The notes beneath the pieces were generated by a model. The model made no database searches and was not told the DNA's origin. It saw only the letters and a list, made by a program, of their open reading frames with translations. Positions 12,156 to 62,659 of a stretch of DNA of 64,000 bases are shown here, in pieces. Each line of letters starts with the position of its first letter. The stretch's first letter is position 1. Location: NCBI RefSeq assembly GCF_058153355.1, contig NZ_CM177019.1; one strand, 5' to 3'. The position numbers and the translations under genes are program-made.

Positions 12156-13013
12156 TTAACCAGCTATACTCGCACTCGTCGGCCCTGTTTCAATACTACC
12201 CACAATATCAATAATGTGCCCCCAGAACATATCATCATCGTTATAATATAATGAATAATCTCTATTATAATCCATAGTCAACTCAACAAGATTTATTCTG
12301 CTAACAAACATATCTTCTGTAATTTCTTCATCTTCTTCATCTTGAAGCCAGTCATTGGCCAATTCAGTTAATTGTTCTGCGGCATATTGCCTAAACTCCT
12401 GATCTTTTTGTTGCATATGACTACATAAAAATCGCAGATTTTCAAAAGCCTGTTGCCAGGTATATCTATCATTCTTATCTACTTCCATAGATACAGAAAT
12501 ATTCTGATCATTCCATTTCACTTCCCCGCTAAAACAGGAGTAGTCTTTATTAAGCACGAAAGTCCCCAATTGCTGATCTTCAACAACAACTGGTTTGCGA
12601 TATTCTTTCTGAATATTGAGCAGTTCCTCACACTGAACATGACTTTCAAGAACCTCAAGAACATAAAACCGATTATAAAACTCGGCTAACTTTCCTTCCG
12701 GCACGGTCCTGTCAATCAAATCTCGTACTCTCAGGCGATATATACCACCAGACTGCATATTAAACGGCCACGCACAGCCTTGAGTTTTCTCATTTTCTTC
12801 TGTTATCAACCAGTTGAGTCGTCCATCTCCAACGTGAATTTCTCCCGTCGTCAGACTCTTCCAGGCGAGTAAGTGTTCAACCGCTGTCCAGTAATTATCA
12901 CCGTTACTCTTACCCGCGCCACCGCCAGTATCACTAAGAAGAACGATAATTTCTTCTTCTGTATCTTTAAATGTATGACTAAATTTTTTGTATTCTTCAG
13001 AATTTAAGTCCAT
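12156..13013 (-). CDS. orphan hypothetical protein (285 aa, acidic, no recognisable motif) in AT-rich islet
   Basis: single long ORF in a visibly AT-rich insert between ydcF and hrpA; ATG preceded by a GGGG SD-like run; no TM, signal peptide, HTH or nucleotide-binding motif seen. Confidence 0.6.
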   Translation of the reverse strand: MDLNSEEYKKFSHTFKDTEEEIIVLLSDTGGGAGKSNGDNYWTAVEHLLAWKSLTTGEIHVGDGRLNWLITEENEKTQGCAWPFNMQSGGIYRLRVRDLIDRTVPEGKLAEFYNRFYVLEVLESHVQCEELLNIQKEYRKPVVVEDQQLGTFVLNKDYSCFSGEVKWNDQNISVSMEVDKNDRYTWQQAFENLRFLCSHMQQKDQEFRQYAAEQLTELANDWLQDEEDEEITEDMFVSRINLVELTMDYNRDYSLYYNDDDMFWGHIIDIVGSIETGPTSASIAG

Positions 13014-25872: not shown

Positions 25873-28800
25873 TTAGAACGTTTTCTTGAAGTTCAGCATC
25901 ACGCCTTTATCGCTGATACCATCCTCTTTCCAGTGGTAAGCATCCAGATTCAGCGAACTTTCTTTGCTGCTGTACTTCACGCCGACGCTTGCCAGACTGT
26001 TGATGCCGCCGCCCTTTTGCCCATCATCGACATTAAAGTGCTGGCTGCCTGCGCCTGCCAGGCTTGCCGTGCGCTGGCTCTTCGTGTAGCTCAGGTTCGG
26101 GCCGCCTTCCAGCGTGGCGTTCGCGCTCCAGCCGTCTTTGCCTGCGTAGTCCAGCTTCAGCCCGACGATACTGTCCACCGCCGTTTCGCTGCCGCTGTTC
26201 ATGCTCAGGTTAAAGTCTCCGGCATTACGCTCCTGATAACCGCCTTCCAGCGTGTGACGCAGTTTCACACCCGCATATGGCGTGATTTTCAGCCCTTCGC
26301 GCGGTTCAAAGGTTTTCGCCCCTTCGCTGCGGAACTCCAGGTACTGCTGTTTCACGTTGGTATCCGCCGTTTTGCTAACGTCGCCGTAAGCCACCGAACG
26401 GCTGCTGTCCAGTTGGTGAATATCGTAACGCAGCGCGTTATTCCAGCTCATACCGTTGTCAAAGGACATCTGATGCTTCAGGCCAAAGAACTGGCTGTAG
26501 CCGCCTGTAACACCATTATCACCCGCTTTCTGCGCACCATCGCCGTCCAGACGGGCGATACCGTACTCCAGGCTCATGGTCTGGTTTTCGCTCAGGTCGA
26601 GGGTTTTGCGCAGCGCCAGCATGTCGTACTCGGTATTATTCCCCAGCTCTGCACGCGGATCGCCTTTCGCCACCACGTTAAATGCCAGACCGTTGCCCAT
26701 CTTCGGTGCTGCGTCCGCCAACATGCTGAAGCGGTTACTCAACACGCGGGCCTCACGAAATACCGTGGTAGCCTGGCTCCCGCTGACTTGTTTCAGCGCG
26801 CTGTTCAGCTCTGCAGTGGTGCCAACGTTCAGACTGGTATACAGCTCGTTGTTGGTGTAACCCGCATCCAGCGCTTTTGCCACGTCATTCACTGAGGCAT
26901 CCGTCGCCACATCGGTGTAGGCGTTTTTGCTCATGGTCACGTCAACGTTGCCGCTGGCGTCGGTACTGCCTGTCGCCTGCCAGACAACAGATGTCGAAGT
27001 GATCGCTTGCGCATCAGTCAGGTTGCTGCCTTGCACCACATCATCAAAGCTGACGGTTTTGTCCGCCGTTCCCGCCGCAAAATCGGTGTTGATCTCCACG
27101 CCGTTCATACTGGCGTTATTGAGCATCAGCTTACCGGCGCTACCGTCGGCGTTCGTCCCCACCACGTAACCATTGAGGTTGTTCATGCCATCGTTGCGGC
27201 TAACGGAAGAAGAATGGGTGCCGTCGTATGGCGTAATGGTGGGTTCTTCCGGCGCGGTAAAGTCGACATAGTGCACTTCCGTACCGTCTCCGCCTTCGCC
27301 ACTACCCTCCATCGCCGTGCCAGATTGTTTAATTAATCCGGAACCATTCACGCTGTCGTCAATATAAACAGTGCCGTTGTTAACAATATGACCATTGCTC
27401 CCGAGCTTGCTGAAAGCCCAGGAGTTATTGGCGTAGATATTAATCGTACCGTTGTTTTCAACCACACCATCCGCTTTCGCGTCCGATGCTAATTGCATTC
27501 CAACCATACCTGTATGCGAAGTGCCTTCGCTACCAATATTGATAGTGCCATTGTTGACCATTTTTGCGCTGCCGTGCGCATTCATGGCGATGGTATTATT
27601 TTTATCAATATTGATAGTGCCATCGTTAATTGCCCGGCTACCGGCGTTATTATTTGGCGTCGTAACCTGGCCGTTAATCACACCTGTCGTACCGTTATAC
27701 AACGTATGCCCATTACCGCTGGTAGCGATATCAGCATCACCATTCACTGTACCCCAGTTGTTGAAATGCCCAGCCCAAAGTCCGTTATCAAGAAGATCGA
27801 CAACACCACCGACCAGGTTATTAAAGGTCGCGTTTTTATCAACCGAACCACTGTGAACCGTTCCTGCGTTATTGAAAGTGGCTGCGGCAGAAAAATTCAC
27901 TTTATTGACCGTTCCATCCGCTTCGTTATTCATCACGGCAGAAGCTGAGGCCCCTTTCCAGGCTGTTACCGTCCCGGCGTTATAAAACGTACTGGCCCAT
28001 TGTTCAACAGTGTTCATGGTGCCGGAATTGTTGATAACAGAACCCGCAACGGTTGTACCTACCAACCCGGTCACCGTACCTTCGTTAGTGAACACGCCGC
28101 CATCCACAGAAACGGTTTTTGTCGTGCCCTTATTGGTGTATTCCCCACCGGTTGCGATATCAACCTCATTAATACTGCCCGTGGTTTCATTGACCAAACG
28201 GCCAAAGTCAGCCACGGTGACAGGCCCCCCGGTAACCGTACCCGCGTTGGTTACCAGGGTTTCGGCGGTTGCCGTGATATCAGTCGTACCGCCATATGAA
28301 GACAGGTTAAGCGTTTCCCCGTCAGCCGAAATAATGTCACCATTTCTCCAGCTTAATGAAACAAACCCGTCAGTCGGGTTATAGGCGTTATTGTCCTGGC
28401 ATTTCCCAAAAGTACAGATGGTTCCGTAATTAACAATAGTCCCGCTGCCATCGTTATAGAACGCCTGCCCGTTTTCGGCATTGATATTGATGATGCCAGT
28501 CTGATCATTAATCGCAGTGGCACCATTGTAAACAGCCATGCCGACCAATTTATTTGGCCCCAGCGTATCATCATCATTTTCATTTACTTCCAGATTTATA
28601 GTTCCCTGGTTAATAATAATGTTACCTGGCTTCATCGCGGCCATACCGGCACCGGAATTATAGAGTGTTATTTCACCACCCTGCTGGTTAATGGCGGTAG
28701 AATTAACGCTGGCACCAGAACTGTCTGTACCCACAGCCATCCCGACAGCATAATCTTTGGCGCTGTCATGAGCGATATTGGACGCCAGACTGGAAGTATC

Positions 28801-31371
28801 GTTTTCATCAACCCATAATGCGTCAATGAAAATCTTACCCATATTGTCAATGGTTGAATTATTGGAGGCCAGCATGCCAACACTCCCCCGGCCGTACATT
28901 TGGATCTCACCGGCAGTATTATTTGAAGCGGTGCCATTGTTGCCTGCCGTCATCCCCGTCAGACTAATGACTTGATTATTAAAAATTAAAGGGTCACTCA
29001 AACCTTGAGCGTTCAGACTATTGAAAATACGTCCCTGCGCGAGTACCTTACTGGTGATGGCACTGTTATTAACAACTCGACCACCATAGACGCTCAAATA
29101 CGCAGAACTAGCAGAGTCTGATGTATTCCCCTCTACGCCGTAGATAGAAATCGTTACGTTGTTATTATTTACAGCTAGCGACTCTTCACCAGTAGCCCTG
29201 GCAAAGCCAATATTACCCAGTTCTACATCACCATTATTTATCATCTGCGAACCGGAATTCACCAGTACAACCTGTGATGTGTCACTATTATAATGATCAA
29301 ATGTATTTATATCTTTTAGGATAAAAGTGGCGTTGCGGCCAAGTTCTAAATGGGCTCGGTTATTCAGTTGAATGATATCGCCTAATCCAAGCGGAAAAAC
29401 ACCACTGATTGTTGAATCCCCATTTAGATACAGAGTAGAGTGCCCATCGATTTTGATAACAGGCGTATCGCCATAACCATTACGTTTTAAAGCAGGTGTG
29501 GAGCCATCCTGTAGAGTATTTTCTTCGCCAGCTAAATGGATACCACCATTAATTTCGACGGTATTACCGTCACCCGACACAACCAGACCATTAATATTTT
29601 CCTGGCTGCCATCCATTTCATTATAGATACGAGAAGTGACTTCACTGTCAGCAACAACGGTAAGATTGCCATTTAATACGATATTATTGTCGTGTCCCTG
29701 CACCTGAATGCCAACAGAAGGGGTAAAAAAGTCATTTATTGAATGCTCTCCGGCCTGATTTTTATCCACCAGAATATTACCGGTAATTTCAACTTCATTG
29801 CCATCACCGGCTACATTTACCCCTGTCGCAACACTGCCGGTCACATTAAGCTCATTTGTCGCCAGCGTCATGGCGTTATTATTTCCAGAGACATCCAGAC
29901 CGGTTGAATAATCCCCTACATCCACACGGCCAGCCAGAGAAATCAGACCATCATCTCCGATGATGCGAATCCCGGTACTGAAATTATCAGCAATGATGTC
30001 CCCCACATTGATAAGGGTAGAATGATTACCCTCAATCAGAATCCCTGTCGCATTGGCCTCTGAACTACCATTACTGACGGAAATATCCCCCCTGTTAATG
30101 AACGTCGACGCATCACCACTGAGAGAAACACCCTGCGAATTTTCATCCACGACCGTTATATTTCCTTTGTTGCTGACGATCGCGCCATTACCCTCAACAT
30201 CAATACCCCGTGCAGCATTGCTAACGTATAAATCCCCTTCCTGTATAACCGTCGCATTATTACCAACGATTTTGCTGCCCGTTGAATTTTGCCCATCAAC
30301 CGTCATATGTCCTTTATTATCGGTCCTGACATCATTACCGCTAATAACGGCCCCTATTCCGCCGTTATTGACAGTGGAGTCGCCAGTGTTATTTAAGATT
30401 GTACGATCGCCATTGACGATAACCGCCGTGCCAGCATCGACCACCGTCTGACCGTTATTATTGATGGTTATATTATCGCCGGTCAGGATACCGACCACCG
30501 AACCTTCACCGACAGCCTCTGTTTTACCCTCGTTTGTCAGCGCAATGTTGTTACCATTAATCATCATCACCGTGCCGCCATTCAGGGCCGTGTTACCGCC
30601 CTGGTCAGTGATAATCGCATCATTAACGGTAATTATTCTGCCCGTTGTTCCATCAGACACGACACTGGCTAACTGTGTGACGTGGAGTTTACCTTCGTCA
30701 TCGTAGCGCCATTCCATATCACCTGTGGTACTCACACCACTAAACATGGCGGTATGAGTCTCTTCATGGTTTTCCCACTCAGTCACAATGGTTTTTCGGC
30801 CATCTTTTGCCGTCAGCGTGTAGCTACCATCTTCATTTTGGGTATAAGTGAACGTCGCCCCGCGAATCTTCAGGGTTTGCGCGTCCTCGTCCCATGTCAC
30901 ATTGTTATCAAAGACAACGGGTTCTGTTCTCGGGGGGTCAACATCATCACCGCTATTGTCGGGTGGAGTAACATTACCGCCGTTATCTGGCTTTACAGGT
31001 ATACCTGAATCTTCATCACTGGGAACGGGTAGCGGTAGAGGGCCATTATCATCTGGCGGTATGGGCTGGGGAAAAGAAGAGTGAGCAGAATGATCATTGT
31101 CATGAGACAATTCAATCACTGCGAGTGTTGCCAGTACCGCCGTGGCACCTAATGCCAGTAACGAGCTGAAACCATTATTTGTAACAACAGCACATTTTTC
31201 TGGCACTGTTTTCAACTTCGTTGACGGTCGGGCGTGCCCTTCTGACTGACATGTCATTTGAGAGCTTCTGCGCATACTGTCTGCACTCTCGCCTTCTGTT
31301 ATTTCCGCCCCCCAGCTTTGGCCACTTAACGCTATAGCGATACACGCTGATAATAACGTTTTCTTTTGCAT
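25873..31371 (-). CDS. ydbA: autotransporter adhesin YdbA, intact (signal peptide, long repetitive passenger, C-terminal beta-barrel)
   Basis: single 1832-aa ORF; N-terminal signal peptide; Gly/Asn/Thr-rich repeats; C-terminus ends in aromatic residue (...MLNFKKTF) typical of autotransporter barrels. Confidence 0.85.
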   Translation of the reverse strand: MQKKTLLSACIAIALSGQSWGAEITEGESADSMRRSSQMTCQSEGHARPSTKLKTVPEKCAVVTNNGFSSLLALGATAVLATLAVIELSHDNDHSAHSSFPQPIPPDDNGPLPLPVPSDEDSGIPVKPDNGGNVTPPDNSGDDVDPPRTEPVVFDNNVTWDEDAQTLKIRGATFTYTQNEDGSYTLTAKDGRKTIVTEWENHEETHTAMFSGVSTTGDMEWRYDDEGKLHVTQLASVVSDGTTGRIITVNDAIITDQGGNTALNGGTVMMINGNNIALTNEGKTEAVGEGSVVGILTGDNITINNNGQTVVDAGTAVIVNGDRTILNNTGDSTVNNGGIGAVISGNDVRTDNKGHMTVDGQNSTGSKIVGNNATVIQEGDLYVSNAARGIDVEGNGAIVSNKGNITVVDENSQGVSLSGDASTFINRGDISVSNGSSEANATGILIEGNHSTLINVGDIIADNFSTGIRIIGDDGLISLAGRVDVGDYSTGLDVSGNNNAMTLATNELNVTGSVATGVNVAGDGNEVEITGNILVDKNQAGEHSINDFFTPSVGIQVQGHDNNIVLNGNLTVVADSEVTSRIYNEMDGSQENINGLVVSGDGNTVEINGGIHLAGEENTLQDGSTPALKRNGYGDTPVIKIDGHSTLYLNGDSTISGVFPLGLGDIIQLNNRAHLELGRNATFILKDINTFDHYNSDTSQVVLVNSGSQMINNGDVELGNIGFARATGEESLAVNNNNVTISIYGVEGNTSDSASSAYLSVYGGRVVNNSAITSKVLAQGRIFNSLNAQGLSDPLIFNNQVISLTGMTAGNNGTASNNTAGEIQMYGRGSVGMLASNNSTIDNMGKIFIDALWVDENDTSSLASNIAHDSAKDYAVGMAVGTDSSGASVNSTAINQQGGEITLYNSGAGMAAMKPGNIIINQGTINLEVNENDDDTLGPNKLVGMAVYNGATAINDQTGIININAENGQAFYNDGSGTIVNYGTICTFGKCQDNNAYNPTDGFVSLSWRNGDIISADGETLNLSSYGGTTDITATAETLVTNAGTVTGGPVTVADFGRLVNETTGSINEVDIATGGEYTNKGTTKTVSVDGGVFTNEGTVTGLVGTTVAGSVINNSGTMNTVEQWASTFYNAGTVTAWKGASASAVMNNEADGTVNKVNFSAAATFNNAGTVHSGSVDKNATFNNLVGGVVDLLDNGLWAGHFNNWGTVNGDADIATSGNGHTLYNGTTGVINGQVTTPNNNAGSRAINDGTINIDKNNTIAMNAHGSAKMVNNGTINIGSEGTSHTGMVGMQLASDAKADGVVENNGTINIYANNSWAFSKLGSNGHIVNNGTVYIDDSVNGSGLIKQSGTAMEGSGEGGDGTEVHYVDFTAPEEPTITPYDGTHSSSVSRNDGMNNLNGYVVGTNADGSAGKLMLNNASMNGVEINTDFAAGTADKTVSFDDVVQGSNLTDAQAITSTSVVWQATGSTDASGNVDVTMSKNAYTDVATDASVNDVAKALDAGYTNNELYTSLNVGTTAELNSALKQVSGSQATTVFREARVLSNRFSMLADAAPKMGNGLAFNVVAKGDPRAELGNNTEYDMLALRKTLDLSENQTMSLEYGIARLDGDGAQKAGDNGVTGGYSQFFGLKHQMSFDNGMSWNNALRYDIHQLDSSRSVAYGDVSKTADTNVKQQYLEFRSEGAKTFEPREGLKITPYAGVKLRHTLEGGYQERNAGDFNLSMNSGSETAVDSIVGLKLDYAGKDGWSANATLEGGPNLSYTKSQRTASLAGAGSQHFNVDDGQKGGGINSLASVGVKYSSKESSLNLDAYHWKEDGISDKGVMLNFKKTF

Positions 31372-32017
31372 GAGAAATCCTTTTCAATGAATGACATTTC
31401 AAATAATAAAATATGAGTAATAGATAAGAAATAGCCACAGGCTGTGTCATGATTTAATGCCTGCTCTTGAAATTTTATTTAGCAATCCCAGAACATTCAA
31501 CTTAATTAGTATTTCGAAACCTCAATGTAGACACATAAAAAACAAATTATTCGATTACTTAGGCTATTTGTTGCATTAATACACATCCTCTAACAATAAT
31601 CAGACAAAAAGCAATGTCAGCGTCAAATTGGGTAGCTGATTCATATTACTGACCACTCCGGAAATTCATTCATCGTGAAAATATTAACATTTCAACCATG
31701 TTCCATTTAATCAACCCACTGAAAATCTGGAGGTTATCTACTGCGGTTTGTTGTTGACTGCCCCTGACAGGTTTACCAGGCGTTGACAGAAGATGAGGCT
31801 TGCAAGATGCTAAAAACAATGTGGTGTTACAAGCAATCCCATAAACCTCGTAACTTCACTTAAATGAGCGATGCCGTCCATATTTGGGTTGACTATAAAA
31901 ACCCTTAATATTGAGGTTGATGATGATATTCATGATGGCATTGGAAAAATAGGACACCCATAAAATATCTATACAGCCTTTAAATTAAATCATTGAAATA
32001 TCGCTGTTGCATAGTGC

Positions 32018-32344
32018 TTATTTTTGCAACCATTTCCCGTTAATTCCCTGCACATATTCCCCCGGTTTGGCCCGAGCTACAAGCTTTTGTCCGGCAAGCT
32101 TCGCGATATCATCTACCGATACATTATTTTGCTTTGCCAGTTGTTGATAACTCACTTTACGTGCGGCATTAATCTCGGTTACTAATTTCTCTGTTTCAGC
32201 ATCCGTTTTCAACGCAACCAAATAACCGTTAAATGTTTCACCTACCCGCCCCTGAATTCTGGCCTCGTCCAGTGTTAATGCCACTACATTGCTGCTTACC
32301 AGTCCAACAAGAAACGCACAAAGAAGTAATGTTTTCTTCATCAT
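32018..32344 (-). CDS. ydbL: YdbL (DUF1318 periplasmic protein)
   Basis: ORF to 32422; 108-aa product from MMKKTLLLCAFLVGL (signal peptide); last gene of ydbH-ynbE-ydbL. Confidence 0.85.
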   Translation of the reverse strand: MMKKTLLLCAFLVGLVSSNVVALTLDEARIQGRVGETFNGYLVALKTDAETEKLVTEINAARKVSYQQLAKQNNVSVDDIAKLAGQKLVARAKPGEYVQGINGKWLQK

Positions 32345-43067: not shown

Positions 43068-43123
43068 GATTCATTTCGCAAATGTGCTGACATTTTCCCC
43101 TCTAATCATTACAATTTAAATTT

Positions 43124-43735
43124 ATGAATTATGCATTGATAATCGCTATTATAATATCGTTCCCCTGTGCATTATTATCAGTTTTTCTGGTATTAAAAGA
43201 CTGGGCGCTAATAGGAGATGCAATGAACCACGCAATGTTTCCTGGCATAGTTCTAGCCTGGATTATAGGTATGCCGCTGGGAATTGGTGCATTTATTGTA
43301 GGACTGTCTTGTGCAATTGCAACTGGCTATCTGAAAGATAATAGCATCATAAAGAAAGATACCATTATAGGTATCGTTTTTTCAGGAATTTTTGTCTTGA
43401 CTATCAACAGGCACAAGTCAGCGGATTACAGATATCATTATTACATTACGGTTTACTCTGCATGGTATCGCCTACCATTTTTGCCACATTAAAAGCAGTC
43501 GGAATTATTCTGTCTATATACTATTAATAGCTCCAGGGTCTATTGCTGTCCTCATCACGCATCGCTTTCATAAGACATTACTTATCGCCGTAACGATATC
43601 AATAACAATATCAGGCGTATGGTTATTATATTTTCTCGACAGAGCCCCAGCGCCGACAATCGTCCTCTTATTTGCTGTAGCATTTCTTTTCGCGCTTATA
43701 ATAATCAATTTTCGGAAACAATAATCTCAACAGTA
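43124..43735 (+). pseudogene. decayed ABC-3 family (Mn/Zn/Fe) transporter permease gene, frameshifted and internally truncated
   Basis: frame of 43124..43492 encodes an ABC-3 permease-like N-terminus (DAMNHAMFPGIVLAW, TIIGIVFSGIFVLTI); permease-like C-terminus (LLIAPGSIAVLITHRFHKTLLIAVTISITISGVWLLYFLDRAPAPTIVLLFAVAFLF) continues in another frame to stop at 43733..43735; AT-rich. Confidence 0.5.
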
Positions 43736-44991
43736 GAATAAAGAGGCAAATCAATCATTACATATATAAGATGGTGCTAATATTGCACCGCCTTTAAATT
43801 GAACTTTATCCTTTCACCCTTACACAATTTAAGGAATGCAGATGACTATTTTATCAGCACCCAGCCTTTTTCCTGGTAATCGAAAACTTGAAAATCATTA
43901 ACTCTAAGAAATTCTGCCAAATCGTTGAAATTACTTTAAATTAGACTCGAACAAATCAACCCCTGATGGGGCTTTTACTTATCCATTTAATCGGGTATAT
44001 ATCGACCTCCATCTGCCCGCCTCAGATTCGTACCTGGTGGAGGTCTTTTTTCGTTACCTCTTTCCCCCTTTAGTTCAGTATAAAATCATCAAACTAATGC
44101 TGTTCACACTATTTACCTCCAGCATTCTATATAAATAATAGAAATAAAAACCCCAATACATAGTGCATTGGCATGACCAAACATCAATGCCATTATACTC
44201 GCCTCTGTTAAATACTCGCTAGTTAATATGATAGGCACGCATGATATAACAATCCATATGCTAATACATAAATACACCAGTATTTTTCTCATAGTCAGTC
44301 CCTGTGATTAACAATCAAGGCATAGTTAAGCATATTTCACATTCAAACGTAAACATTATTAATAACATTATGTCAATCGAACTGACATCACGATTCAAGC
44401 CCTCTTCAGACTGAAGGCTAGAGCAGCGTAGAACATTTCAAAACAATACACTGAAAAAATACTTGAACAAAAAACTTAATTCTTTTTTATTGTGAACTTT
44501 AGTAATTTTGTCATGCAACTCTTTATTACATTTAGGCCTATCTTATTTCATGGCAACGCAAATACAGGACCATTTCTTGTGCTATGGATAAGTAATAAGC
44601 TAGTTACATCTTATTAAGAGAACCATTTTCACATATCAAAATATCATCACCACCCACAATGAATTAAGTATTTTTCTTATTCTTTAGATTAGATACGTAA
44701 TGAATCCCTAACTCCATTCGGGTGTCATGGCTCTTTCATTTGAAATACATTCATATCCAATGTAATATTTCTATGCGCAAATATAACTACCGACCATACT
44801 CATCATTTATTACAGAGAATTATTTTATTCACCGAAAAGTTTCACAAAATATCCCCTGATAGAAAACTAAAAAACACTGCATAATATCGCTATTCTGGCA
44901 CTTGCGAAAAATTATATTCTGCACCTGTTGTAGCGTTCTATTTCTCCGCCTGGCAACGAATGCACAATGTCCGCCACAGTTTCTGTTCTAA

Positions 44992-45309
44992 TTTCTTCCT
45001 GTGTTACCGCATCCTGTACGGGTAGCGCAACACCAGCATGCTAAGCAAGGCTTTCCCATCAGATTTCACTACGACTATTTGGGAGCGAGATGGAATGCAG
45101 CAGTAAAACGTGCTGGTATTCGCCGCCGTAATCCGTACCATACGCGACATACTTTTGCCTGCTGGCTGTTGACGGCAGGAGCGAACCCGGCATTTATAGC
45201 CAGCCAGATGGGGCATGAAACTGCGCAGATGGTGTATGAAATTTACGGTATGTGGATTGATGACATGAACGACGAACAGGTAGCTATGTTGAATGCGCGG
45301 TTATCGTAG
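44992..45309 (+). pseudogene. 3' fragment of a tyrosine-recombinase (Rac-type prophage integrase) gene
   Basis: open frame encodes only the integrase C-terminal catalytic region (RRNPYHTRHTFACWLLTAGANPAFIASQMGHETAQMVYEIYGMW) with no N-terminal domains; directly upstream of ttcA where K-12 carries intR. Confidence 0.7.
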
Positions 45310-59687: not shown

Positions 59688-59945
59688 TTACTGCTCCTCG
59701 CCGCCAAGGAAATAAATTCCCAACGGGATTGCCAGCAACACAGTAAAGACCAGGCTATAAACAAAAATCATTGATGACTGAATCACATACATTGATGTCG
59801 TCCACTCAGACAGCGGAATATTGTACTGTTCTATCACGCCGCCGATGGTCGCGCGAGTCACAACCGACGCCGCAATAATGAAAACCGCCAACAAACCAAA
59901 GAGAAATTTCTTCCCTTTCGCTGACTTCAGTTTCGCCATAATCAT
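59688..59945 (-). CDS. ynaJ: small inner membrane protein YnaJ
   Basis: 85-aa ORF with two hydrophobic helices; matches YnaJ. Confidence 0.85.
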   Translation of the reverse strand: MIMAKLKSAKGKKFLFGLLAVFIIAASVVTRATIGGVIEQYNIPLSEWTTSMYVIQSSMIFVYSLVFTVLLAIPLGIYFLGGEEQ

Positions 59946-60029
59946 GATGTAATCCTTGTGCAGACAAATTTCTTGTTACCTAACCGTAACAATACCATGA
60001 CATTTCACCGTTGTCTGCTCTGAAAACCT

Positions 60030-60042
60030 CACCTCTTAGCTG
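60030..60042. repeat. 13-bp target-site duplication (left copy) of IS4
   Basis: CACCTCTTAGCTG immediately outside the IS4 left end; identical copy at 61469..61481. Confidence 0.85.
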
Positions 60043-61468
60043 TAATGCCAGTCAGTTAAGCAACTGACTGGCTCTTTTTCGGGGCTGTGGGGTATTTCCA
60101 GGGCCTCTCCTTTACCACTCTCGGGAAGGCCCTTTCCCTTCTTGTCGGTAATTTCACAAGTTGTCCCATACTTGCAAGATCGCGCATCAGCTCCGGTATA
60201 CGTCCCGGTGAAGCGCCCTGCAATGTCATCAGCATTCTCATCACCATTCCGCATGATTCTGAGAAACTCAGTTGATTCGGCCAGTAACCTTTCAGATGTT
60301 CCGCCATTTTAATCATCTGATATCTCACCAGATTATAAGCCAGTAAGACACCCCACAGCTCTTGCTCCACAAGCTCCGGCTTTTTACTTCTCAGCGTCAG
60401 CCTGCTCAGTTGCATCGTCTGTTTTATCTCCCTGTATCCCAGTTCGATTTCCCAGCGATGACTGTACAGATCCGCCATTTCTCCTCCGGGGAAGCGCATG
60501 GCGTCCGTCATCGACGTCAGCAGATGGCAGACTTTTCCTTTGCGCGTCACGGTCAGCAGGCGGGCTGTCACTTCATTTCCCAGTCCCGGCCACTTTTTTC
60601 GTGCCTGCGGGCTGGTTTTCAGCTTCACCAGATGATCGCCTTTACCCAGTTTTCTGATCTCTTCATATTGCGCTCCCTTTCTGAGAGGTATCATCCAGTG
60701 GCGGTGTTCTCCCGCCAGGCTCCAGGCATTTAACAGTCCCAGTGAGTAATAACCTTTATCCATTAACGTCAGAGTGTTATCGCCGGTTTGTTCTATAAGT
60801 TGCTCAGCAAGCTCATTTTCGCTGTTCTTCATCGTGCCGAAGGCTGCAGCCGTCAGCAGATGGCTGGTCAGTTCCATCTGGCAGACCATTTTGACCTGCG
60901 GGTAGAGCGCCGGGTTCCCGGCATGTGTCTGGCGGGGGAAGGCTGCATCGTTCTCTGGTGTATCCGGTGTGCGCCAGAACACACCATCGATGGCCAGCAG
61001 GGTCAGGCCGCACCAGTGCGGATGCGGCGTGGCGTTATGCCAGAGCTGCGCTGTTTTCGTGAACACGCGGCGGACAGCCTCACTTCCCAGGCGCTGGCGG
61101 GCCTGAATAACGGCACTGGGGGCAACGAAGGGGCGATTGCCCGGCAGCATGATGTCCAGGCGATTCACAATCTGGTGAAGAGGTTCTTTACGCTCAAGCG
61201 CCATGCCAACAATACACCAGACCATCATTTCGAGGGGAAGACGGCGCTTGCGTAGCGTTACAGTACCTGATTCGGCAAGGCAACGAGAGATGAGTTCGGG
61301 GTCGAGGTAATCCCCCAGAGAAGTCAGTGGGTTACGCAGAGAATCGTAACGGGATACCAGATCAAGAGCCTGTCCAATGTGCATAAAAAAATCCGGAAAC
61401 AAGTGAGCGTTTCCGGATTCTTACACAGCCACTGGATCGGTCAACTGATCCTTAACTGATCGGCATTA
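60043..61468 (-). mobile_element. insertion sequence IS4, complete (1426 bp)
   Basis: ends TAATGCCAGTCAGTTAAG... and ...CTTAACTGATCGGCATTA (imperfect terminal inverted repeats); encodes IS4 transposase; flanked by 13-bp direct repeats. Confidence 0.9.
60056..61384 (-). CDS. insG: IS4 transposase InsG
   Basis: ORF opens at 61402; conserved 442-aa product starts at [20 protein letters not shown]; IS4-family DDE transposase. Confidence 0.9.
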
Positions 61469-61481
61469 CACCTCTTAGCTG
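61469..61481. repeat. 13-bp target-site duplication (right copy) of IS4
   Basis: CACCTCTTAGCTG immediately outside the IS4 right end. Confidence 0.85.
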
Positions 61482-61627
61482 GATTTACAATCAACGCATT
61501 GATTAGTTAGCTAATGTTGCTACTTCCTTCCCTGACTATTGATGATCTGAATGAATTGTCGCGGTAAAATAGCCCCGCCAGGGGTTTCCGGCATGACGAC
61601 AATTATCTGGAGGAGCCTGATAAAACA

Positions 61628-62659
61628 ATGATCGCTGAACTGTTTACAAATAATGCGCTTAATCTGGTCATTATTTTCGGTAGCTGCGCAGCATTGATTC
61701 TGATGAGCTTTTGGTTTCGCCGCGGAAATCGTAAAAGAAAAGGATTTTTATTCCATGCGGTGCAATTTTTAATCTACACCATAATTATCAGTGCTGTTGG
61801 TAGCATCATTAATTATGTTATAGAAAACTATAAACTCAAATTTATCACCCCAGGCGTTATCGATTTTATCTGTACGTCCCTGATTGCGGTTATTCTGACG
61901 ATTAAGTTATTTCTGCTGATTAATCAGTTTGAAAAACAGCAGATTAAAAAAGGTCGTGATATCACCAGTGCGCGGATTATGTCGCGTATCATCAAAATCA
62001 CCATTATTGTGGTACTTGTTTTGCTTTATGGCGAACATTTCGGCATGAGCCTTTCTGGCTTGCTGACCTTTGGTGGTATTGGTGGTCTGGCTGTCGGTAT
62101 GGCCGGTAAAGATATTTTGAGTAACTTCTTTTCCGGGATTATGCTCTATTTCGACCGTCCTTTTAGTATTGGCGACTGGATCCGTTCACCGGACAGAAAT
62201 ATCGAAGGTACAGTAGCGGAAATTGGCTGGCGAATTACCAAAATTACGACCTTTGATAATCGTCCGTTATACGTCCCGAACTCGCTGTTTTCGTCTATCA
62301 GCGTAGAAAACCCGGGGCGAATGACCAACCGACGTATTACCACGACAATCGGTTTACGTTATGAGGATGCGGCAAAAGTGGGAGCCATTGTCGAAGCCGT
62401 ACGTGAGATGCTTAAAAATCACCCAGCCATCGACCAGCGACAAACCTTACTGGTTTATTTCAACCAGTTTGCTGACTCGTCATTGAATATTATGGTTTAT
62501 TGCTTTACCAAAACCACAGTATGGGCTGAATGGCTTGCCGCCCAGCAGGATGTTTATTTGAAGATTATCGATATTGTACAGTCACACGGCGCGGATTTCG
62601 CGTTCCCAAGCCAGACGCTGTATATGGATAACATTACACCACCAGACCAGGGTCGTTAA
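61628..62659 (+). CDS. ynaI: MscS-family mechanosensitive channel YnaI
   Basis: 343-aa ORF with N-terminal TM helices and MscS core; matches YnaI. Confidence 0.9.

Follow-up and report, generated by a model that had tools for sequence, protein, structure and literature searches.

The question raised by a 64,000-nucleotide stretch of DNA (NCBI RefSeq assembly GCF_058153355.1, contig NZ_CM177019.1; hereafter the window, to whose full length all coordinates refer) is why a complete copy of the insertion sequence (IS) element IS4 lies between the divergent genes ynaJ and ynaI, and whether its presence there reflects a property of the region, a regulatory change, or the habits of the element itself. 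The original prediction for this locus, made from the DNA letters alone, described a complete IS4 bordered by a target duplication of 13 bp and suggested that the intergenic region is a recurrent insertion hotspot. We find that the element is an ordinary, complete and canonical IS4 of Escherichia coli, the biology of which is known, and that the new point is confined to the locus: a junction between IS4 and the ynaJ/ynaI spacer is unrecorded in the collections searched. Very probably, the element arrived by a simple cut-and-paste insertion into the spacer, which measures 243 bp when empty, at a site set by IS4's own target preference and in a single lineage.

Identity and coding capacity of the element

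The element extends over 1426 bp on the minus strand (60043..61468), with the same length and identical ends to those of 11 other full copies. It is bordered by two copies of a 13-bp sequence, CACCTCTTAGCTG, at 60030..60042 on the left and 61469..61481 on the right, which directly adjoin it and constitute a perfect target-site duplication. This sequence occurs exactly twice in the window, and still twice when one mismatch is permitted, against approximately 0.04 occurrences expected from shuffles; K-12 and other strains carry it as a single copy at the unoccupied site. The element terminates in imperfect inverted repeats that match at 16 of 18 positions, namely TAATGCCAGTCAGTTAAG at the transposase 3' end (60043..60060) and, as the reverse complement, TAATGCCGATCAGTTAAG at the transposase 5' end (61451..61468). 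Members of the IS4 subgroup share the end signature -AATR--------WTW----, direct repeats of 10-13 bp and a size of 1400-1650 bp (PMC2266710, Table 1 for size). The segment 60043..61468 has imperfect terminal repeats bearing this signature, lies within the size range (~1.4-1.65 kb) and is flanked by a duplication of 13 bp, compared with 11-14 bp at the other copies examined. Over its full length, it shares ~99.9% DNA identity with features in many E. coli genomes that are annotated by the Prokaryotic Genome Annotation Pipeline (PGAP) as 'IS4-like element IS4 family transposase'. IS4 is itself widespread: of 5426 complete E. coli genomes, 2686 contain it, and those that do have it in one place at the median and in 24 at most.

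The transposase gene (60056..61384, minus strand) encodes an InsG-type protein of 442 amino acids in a single frame, with neither internal stop codon nor frameshift. A truncated frame, which the original prediction had named as an observation that would speak against its account, was looked for, and the 442-codon frame proved uninterrupted. The protein matches the Pfam domains Nterm_IS4 (3e-33) and DDE_Tnp_1 (9e-32), 75 residues lie between its catalytic residues D133 and D209 and 104 between D209 and E314, and residues 307-321 form a Y(2)R(3)E(6)K motif. Both the spacing of these residues and the motif lie inside the definition of the IS4 family, which comprises a D(60-110)D(100-150)E arrangement, a YREK motif and a single open reading frame (De Palmenaer et al. 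2008; PMC2266710). An alternative start upstream in this frame, a TTG at 61402, gives the 448-residue version annotated by PGAP. The exact protein allele is listed in 6926 index blocks of the searched collection and is found in at least ten distinct places of one assembly (GCA_900448835.1), indicating that it has recently been active. Relative to a 12-copy consensus, the window element differs at three IS positions (1089, 1167 and 1218; window 60380, 60302 and 60251), all of them synonymous, since the encoded protein does not differ from that of the compared loci L004-L013. Every coordinate in the original description, i.e. a complete 1426-bp IS4 with perfect direct repeats and a transposase at 60056..61384, is correct. 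In annotation, the feature should be entered as an intact IS4 with its duplication of 13 bp, and the spacer as interrupted.

Formation and distribution of the insertion

The structure of both ends would be explained if the transposase cut the two target strands with a stagger of 13 bp and subsequent gap repair duplicated CACCTCTTAGCTG. The empty site was reconstructed by removing IS4 together with one repeat, and the resulting 592-bp sequence served as a query. The comparison with IS-free ynaJ-ynaI sequences that had been proposed at the outset was run in this form: 5059 of the 5426 complete E. coli genomes (~93%) have the empty-site sequence, with one copy of CACCTCTTAGCTG, in contiguous form. 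The reconstructed site is 100% identical in strain R32_14_1F, and in K-12 CACCTCTTAGCTG is likewise single and the IS4 target unoccupied.

The occupied site was sought in several collections. A megablast search with the IS4/ynaJ (left) junction retrieved no record at ≥80% coverage among the 5426 genomes; the best coverage, 58%, comprises the IS part and a fortuitously similar flank. The exact 33-nt junction has no match in 100,044 GTDB species-representative genomes and none in JGI metagenome contigs. In every contig examined that shares the identical YnaI allele (24 contigs) or AbgT allele (25 contigs), the spacer is empty and 243 bp long. The closest flanks reach 99.6% identity over 5.9 kb, in strain R32_14_1F, and 98.8% over 13.5 kb.

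The absence of the junction from all collections searched suggests that the insertion is private to its lineage and therefore probably recent on an evolutionary scale; it is younger than the split of that lineage from anything sampled. The perfect duplication and the intact ends are consistent with a recent event. The original description of the insertion as 'relatively recent' is thus borne out by the lack of the junction in the complete genomes, the GTDB representatives, the JGI metagenomes and the allele-matched contigs. The accompanying proposal that the element is probably still mobile is plausible from its sequence, given ends identical to those of 11 copies and a transposase identical to an allele present in at least ten copies of one genome. 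Because both ends, a promoter-like site, a leader hairpin (both described below) and the DDE/YREK transposase are intact, this copy should have kept the ability to transpose. As the junction was seen nowhere else searched, it is useful as a strain- or lineage-specific marker.

A separate observation concerns the representation of the wider region. Over the 22 kb of window 38000-60042, identity stays below 99% in every complete RefSeq E. coli genome, the best match being 98.9% identical over 90% of the query and ~97.3% over its full length, and the hrpA-ynbD segment is only 93.9% identical to K-12. These low best identities suggest that the lineage of the window, or else a mosaic region, is poorly represented among complete genomes.

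Target preference and the hotspot question

Thirteen other distinct IS4 targets were reconstructed from the flanks of copies at loci L001, L004-L013 and L024-L033. All 13 consist of an A-run, ~3 nt, a duplication of 11-14 bp, ~3 nt and a T-run. Nine form strong GC hairpins (-10.7 to -16.6 kcal/mol for the duplication with 4 nt on each side) that resemble bidirectional intrinsic terminators downstream of genes, among them rpoD-mug, adhE-tdk, yceK-opgH, raiA-bamD, eno, degS-mdh, bipA and aroA, and the other four (L010-L012, L033) are weak dyads. Across strains, the rpoD-mug site (L001 versus L008) and the yceK-opgH site (L005 and L031 versus L026) are occupied in opposite orientations, which indicates independent insertions and hence a strong specificity of IS4. 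The collected sites document a preference for terminator-like A-run/hairpin/T-run sequences, with independent reuse in both orientations, and help to predict where IS4 will land. A target consensus of AAA-N20-TTT for IS4 is said to have been reported by Mayaux and colleagues in 1984. In searches of the open-access literature, no source for a classical IS4 target consensus was found. Elements of the IS4 subgroup show striking conservation in both target arms (PMC2266710).

The window site fits this architecture moderately well. It reads AAAA-cct-CACCTCTTAGCTG-ga-TTT, with spacers of 3 nt and 2 nt, and both half-sites begin CACC/CAGC. The duplication matches that of the rpoD-mug insertion, CACCTTTTCGGTG, at 10 of 13 positions; because of this likeness, the megablast alignments of the junction extended into foreign flanks by 20-25 nt. 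With a half-site weight matrix derived from the other IS4 sites only, the true combination of site and length ranks 322nd of 250,098 (top 0.13%). The site was probably picked through the preference of IS4 for an A-run, ~3 nt, a GC-richer core of 11-14 bp (often a dyad or hairpin), ~3 nt and a T-run. No special property of the region is needed to explain the choice.

Several observations weigh against this account of a recent, preference-guided insertion. One of the two spacings is 2 nt rather than 3 nt, and the core hairpin is weak (-1.9 kcal/mol). The weight matrix places the insertion locus no higher than 33rd in the empty window of 62.6 kb, and sites that score clearly better have gone unused, including the uspE/ynaJ terminator ~370 bp away. 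In addition, the synonymous change at IS position 1089 (window 60380; G) is private, being absent from the other 11 copies, so that the insertion, or its donor copy, is not necessarily very young. Overall, the window site is a moderately good fit to the IS4 target rule, falls in the minority of sites with a weak hairpin and is not the best available. The unoccupied sequences that score above the used site include those at window 59662 (the uspE/ynaJ convergent terminator), 41000 (the MicC terminator), 47636, 43045 and 20722; these are candidate future landing sites for IS4.

The same intergenic region is interrupted in K-12. Strain MG1655 carries an IS5 (insH4, annotated 'IS5F') between ynaI and ynaJ, as does JM83, and a copy of IS5 at ynaI/ynaJ is also recorded in BW25113 (PMC11677980). 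The original prediction had placed this element correctly: insH4 lies at a 4-bp TTAG target, homologous to window 61507..61510, where no element is inserted in the window and which begins 26 bp beyond the right IS4 repeat. In K-12-type genomes, the 592-bp empty-site query accordingly matches in two pieces (1-322 and 319-592). The K-12-type IS5/ynaI junction is present in 353 genomes; the ten among the matches listed are all K-12-type laboratory strains, and the 353 therefore look like the product of one event. The empty-site query matches 5422 genomes, of which 5059 are contiguous, and subtraction of the 353 K-12-type genomes leaves approximately ten. The number of extra places matched (354, against 353 K-12-type genomes) corresponds to approximately one other genome in which the site is split by a large insertion, in a tally that leaves insertions shorter than ~0.8 kb (e.g. 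IS1) uncounted because the search tool joins across them.

Two explanations that locate the cause outside the element can be weighed against these data. Misassembly is the less credible of them: IS elements are a common source of assembly errors, and a copy of IS4 could in principle have been wrongly placed into the spacer, but both junctions are clean, and the sequence present once at the empty site is perfectly duplicated over 13 bp around the element, precisely the mark left by true transposition of IS4 and one that a misjoin would not produce. Together with the moderate fit of the site to the IS4 target pattern, this leaves an artefact a negligible probability. A true regional hotspot, caused for example by DNA bending, AT-richness or selection, with the window IS4 and the K-12 IS5 as two samples of it, has more in its favour, in that the 243-bp spacer has received members of two IS families in different lineages, at points 26 bp from each other, and divergent promoter regions tolerate insertions well. 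However, a hotspot would entail many independent insertions across the population, whereas the spacer is empty and contiguous in the great majority of genomes (5059/5426), 353 share a single IS5 junction that looks like one historical event, ~10 other breaks remain (insertions below ~0.8 kb uncounted) with ~1 genome split in two places, and IS4 occupies this site in none of the 5426. Moreover, each element sits at a sequence in keeping with its own target rule, TTAG/CTAA for IS5 and A-run/T-run for IS4. The recurrent hotspot that had originally been suggested is not supported by this census of insertions longer than ~0.8 kb and is improbable; two elements with distinct target rules in a permissive, AT-rich spacer are adequately explained without it.

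Consequences for the locus and comparison with known insertions

The gene ynaJ (59688..59945, minus strand) encodes a small membrane protein of 85 amino acids with a DUF2534 domain, and ynaI (61628..62659, plus strand) encodes a low-conductance mechanosensitive channel of the MscS family (343 amino acids); these identities confirm the original placement of the insertion in the divergent ynaJ/ynaI region. Upstream of the ynaJ ATG, the left repeat lies at 84 bp and the IS end at 97 bp; upstream of the ynaI ATG, the right repeat lies at 146 bp and the IS end at 159 bp. The distances first proposed, about 85 bp for ynaJ and 160 bp for ynaI, are right, though they were measured from differing reference points.

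IS4 carries several putative signals that may bear on transcription across its ends. On the plus strand, a hairpin with an 11-bp stem followed by a T-run (60047..60072) overlaps both the IS end and the stop codon of the transposase gene; as judged from its sequence, it would be terminator-like solely for transcription that enters IS4 from the ynaJ side. On the minus strand, a leader hairpin (61387..61422; -18.9 kcal/mol, z = -3.4) is followed directly by U7 and the AUG, and spans the region where a ribosome-binding site would be. The hairpin, U7 and AUG are present in all IS4 copies examined. A promoter-like site for the transposase, recognized by consensus match only (TTGACC, 16 nt, TG-n-AAGAAT; 61417..61444, minus strand), has a -10 hexamer that overlaps the 5' arm of the leader hairpin. 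Because of this overlap, transcripts from IS4's own promoter would lack the 5' arm and should hence be translatable, while in transcripts entering from the ynaI side the full hairpin would form and either terminate them or block their translation. Such a distinction between own and outside transcripts at the leader is known for IS10 and IS50. The leader arrangement of IS4 may, by analogy, protect against read-through from outside. A promoter scan found no outward-facing promoter at either end of the element.

In the empty spacer, a strict scan found no promoter scoring at least 9/12, and no known RNA family was detected with Rfam. A relaxed scan gave weak 8/12 matches, with candidate promoters for ynaJ (CAGACA-17-TGnTATTGT, ~60017..59989) and for ynaI (ATGATC-17-TAAAAT, -10 at ~61565-61570). 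Each candidate lies on its own gene's side of IS4, and the ynaI candidate is also located between its gene and the insertion point of IS5 in K-12. Because only these relaxed candidates exist, the promoter positions are inferred. The core promoters of both genes are probably retained, with only upstream sequences displaced, and IS4 places an additional 1.44 kb between the upstream regions of ynaJ and ynaI; any change in the expression of the two genes, which the original prediction had raised as a possibility, is probably mild. On the ynaJ side, the transposase gene points in the same direction as ynaJ, and there is no canonical terminator between them, nor a U-run after the end hairpin on the minus strand. 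Given this shared direction and the lack of a canonical terminator, transcription of the transposase gene may read through weakly into ynaJ.

These features also provide the grounds on which an adaptive regulatory insertion would have to be argued, in which ynaJ had been rewired by transposase read-through, or ynaI cut off from upstream operator or UP sequences, and the result had been kept by selection. The possibility of read-through on the strand shared by the transposase gene and ynaJ speaks for it, as does the position of the IS end only ~25 bp upstream of the best ynaJ -35 candidate. However, neither IS end has an outward-facing promoter, the best candidate core promoters, weak as they are, remain with their genes, the spacer holds no known RNA family, and the insertion is found in a single lineage with no sign of spread or parallelism, so that we regard adaptation as very unlikely. 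We give equally little credence to the broader proposal that IS4 is non-neutral, splitting a shared control region and reading through into ynaJ so as to alter the expression of the YnaI channel or YnaJ, with the K-12 IS5 as a case of parallel selection to uncouple the two genes. Were it true, all expression data for ynaI and ynaJ in K-12 would come from an already disrupted promoter region. The native control region, present in ~93% of complete E. coli genomes, differs from the IS5-bearing K-12 version that is under study.

A further feature of the spacer is a perfect 6-bp inverted repeat, AATCAA-cgca-TTGATT, at window 61489-61504, which places it between the sites used by IS4 and by the K-12 IS5. 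This repeat may be a regulator-binding site; its arrangement is not that of the FNR type (TTGAT-N4-ATCAA). The repeat stays on the ynaI side of the window IS4, but on the ynaJ side of the K-12 IS5.

Elsewhere in the window, several segments differ from K-12. Between the window matches to ydbL and ydbA (27188-32020), 26.5 kb of K-12 DNA are missing, including the feaR-feaB-tynA-paa cluster. An open reading frame of 1832 codons for a ydbA-type autotransporter (25873..31371, minus strand) is uninterrupted, whereas ydbA of K-12 is split by IS2 and IS30. A Shigella origin of the window, conceivable given the expansion of IS4 in that group, is unlikely, since a single IS was noticed in the stretches set against K-12 and ydbA is intact. 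The Rac prophage, which in K-12 occupies 23 kb between ttcA and uspF, is absent and ~2 kb are found in its place (window 43107-45078); the matching stretch of the colinear strain GmM077 is annotated with a frameshifted metal ABC permease, a DUF1627 fragment and a truncated integrase. Between ydcF and hrpA, an extra acidic protein of 285 amino acids with DUF7021 and DUF2262 domains is encoded (12156..13013, minus strand) within a segment of ~1.3 kb, the K-12 counterpart of which is only ~130 bp.

Among known systems, the window element most directly resembles IS4 of E. coli (insG), the founding member of the IS4 family and of its IS4 subgroup. The two are alike in their length of 1426 bp, in terminal repeats that match at 16 of 18 positions, in a single 442-residue DDE/YREK transposase that is identical to a widespread protein allele, in target duplications within the 11-14 bp range and in DNA identity (~99.9%). 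The window copy differs only in its chromosomal location and in three synonymous substitutions, one of them private. The other chromosomal insertions of IS4, such as those at rpoD-mug, adhE-tdk, yceK-opgH, raiA-bamD and degS-mdh, have the target architecture that the window site fits moderately well. Most of them (9/13) are located in terminator-like, strong GC hairpins, whereas the window site, in a spacer between divergent promoters, forms a weak dyad and resembles the minority sites L010-L012 and L033. The IS5 of K-12 (insH4) occupies the divergent spacer of 243 bp that also holds the window IS4, and its insertion point begins 26 bp beyond the IS4 duplication. It is, however, a member of another IS family, has a duplication of 4 bp (TTAG) as opposed to 13 bp, lies closer to ynaI than IS4 does (121 bp from the ATG) and is restricted to the K-12 lineage (353 genomes).

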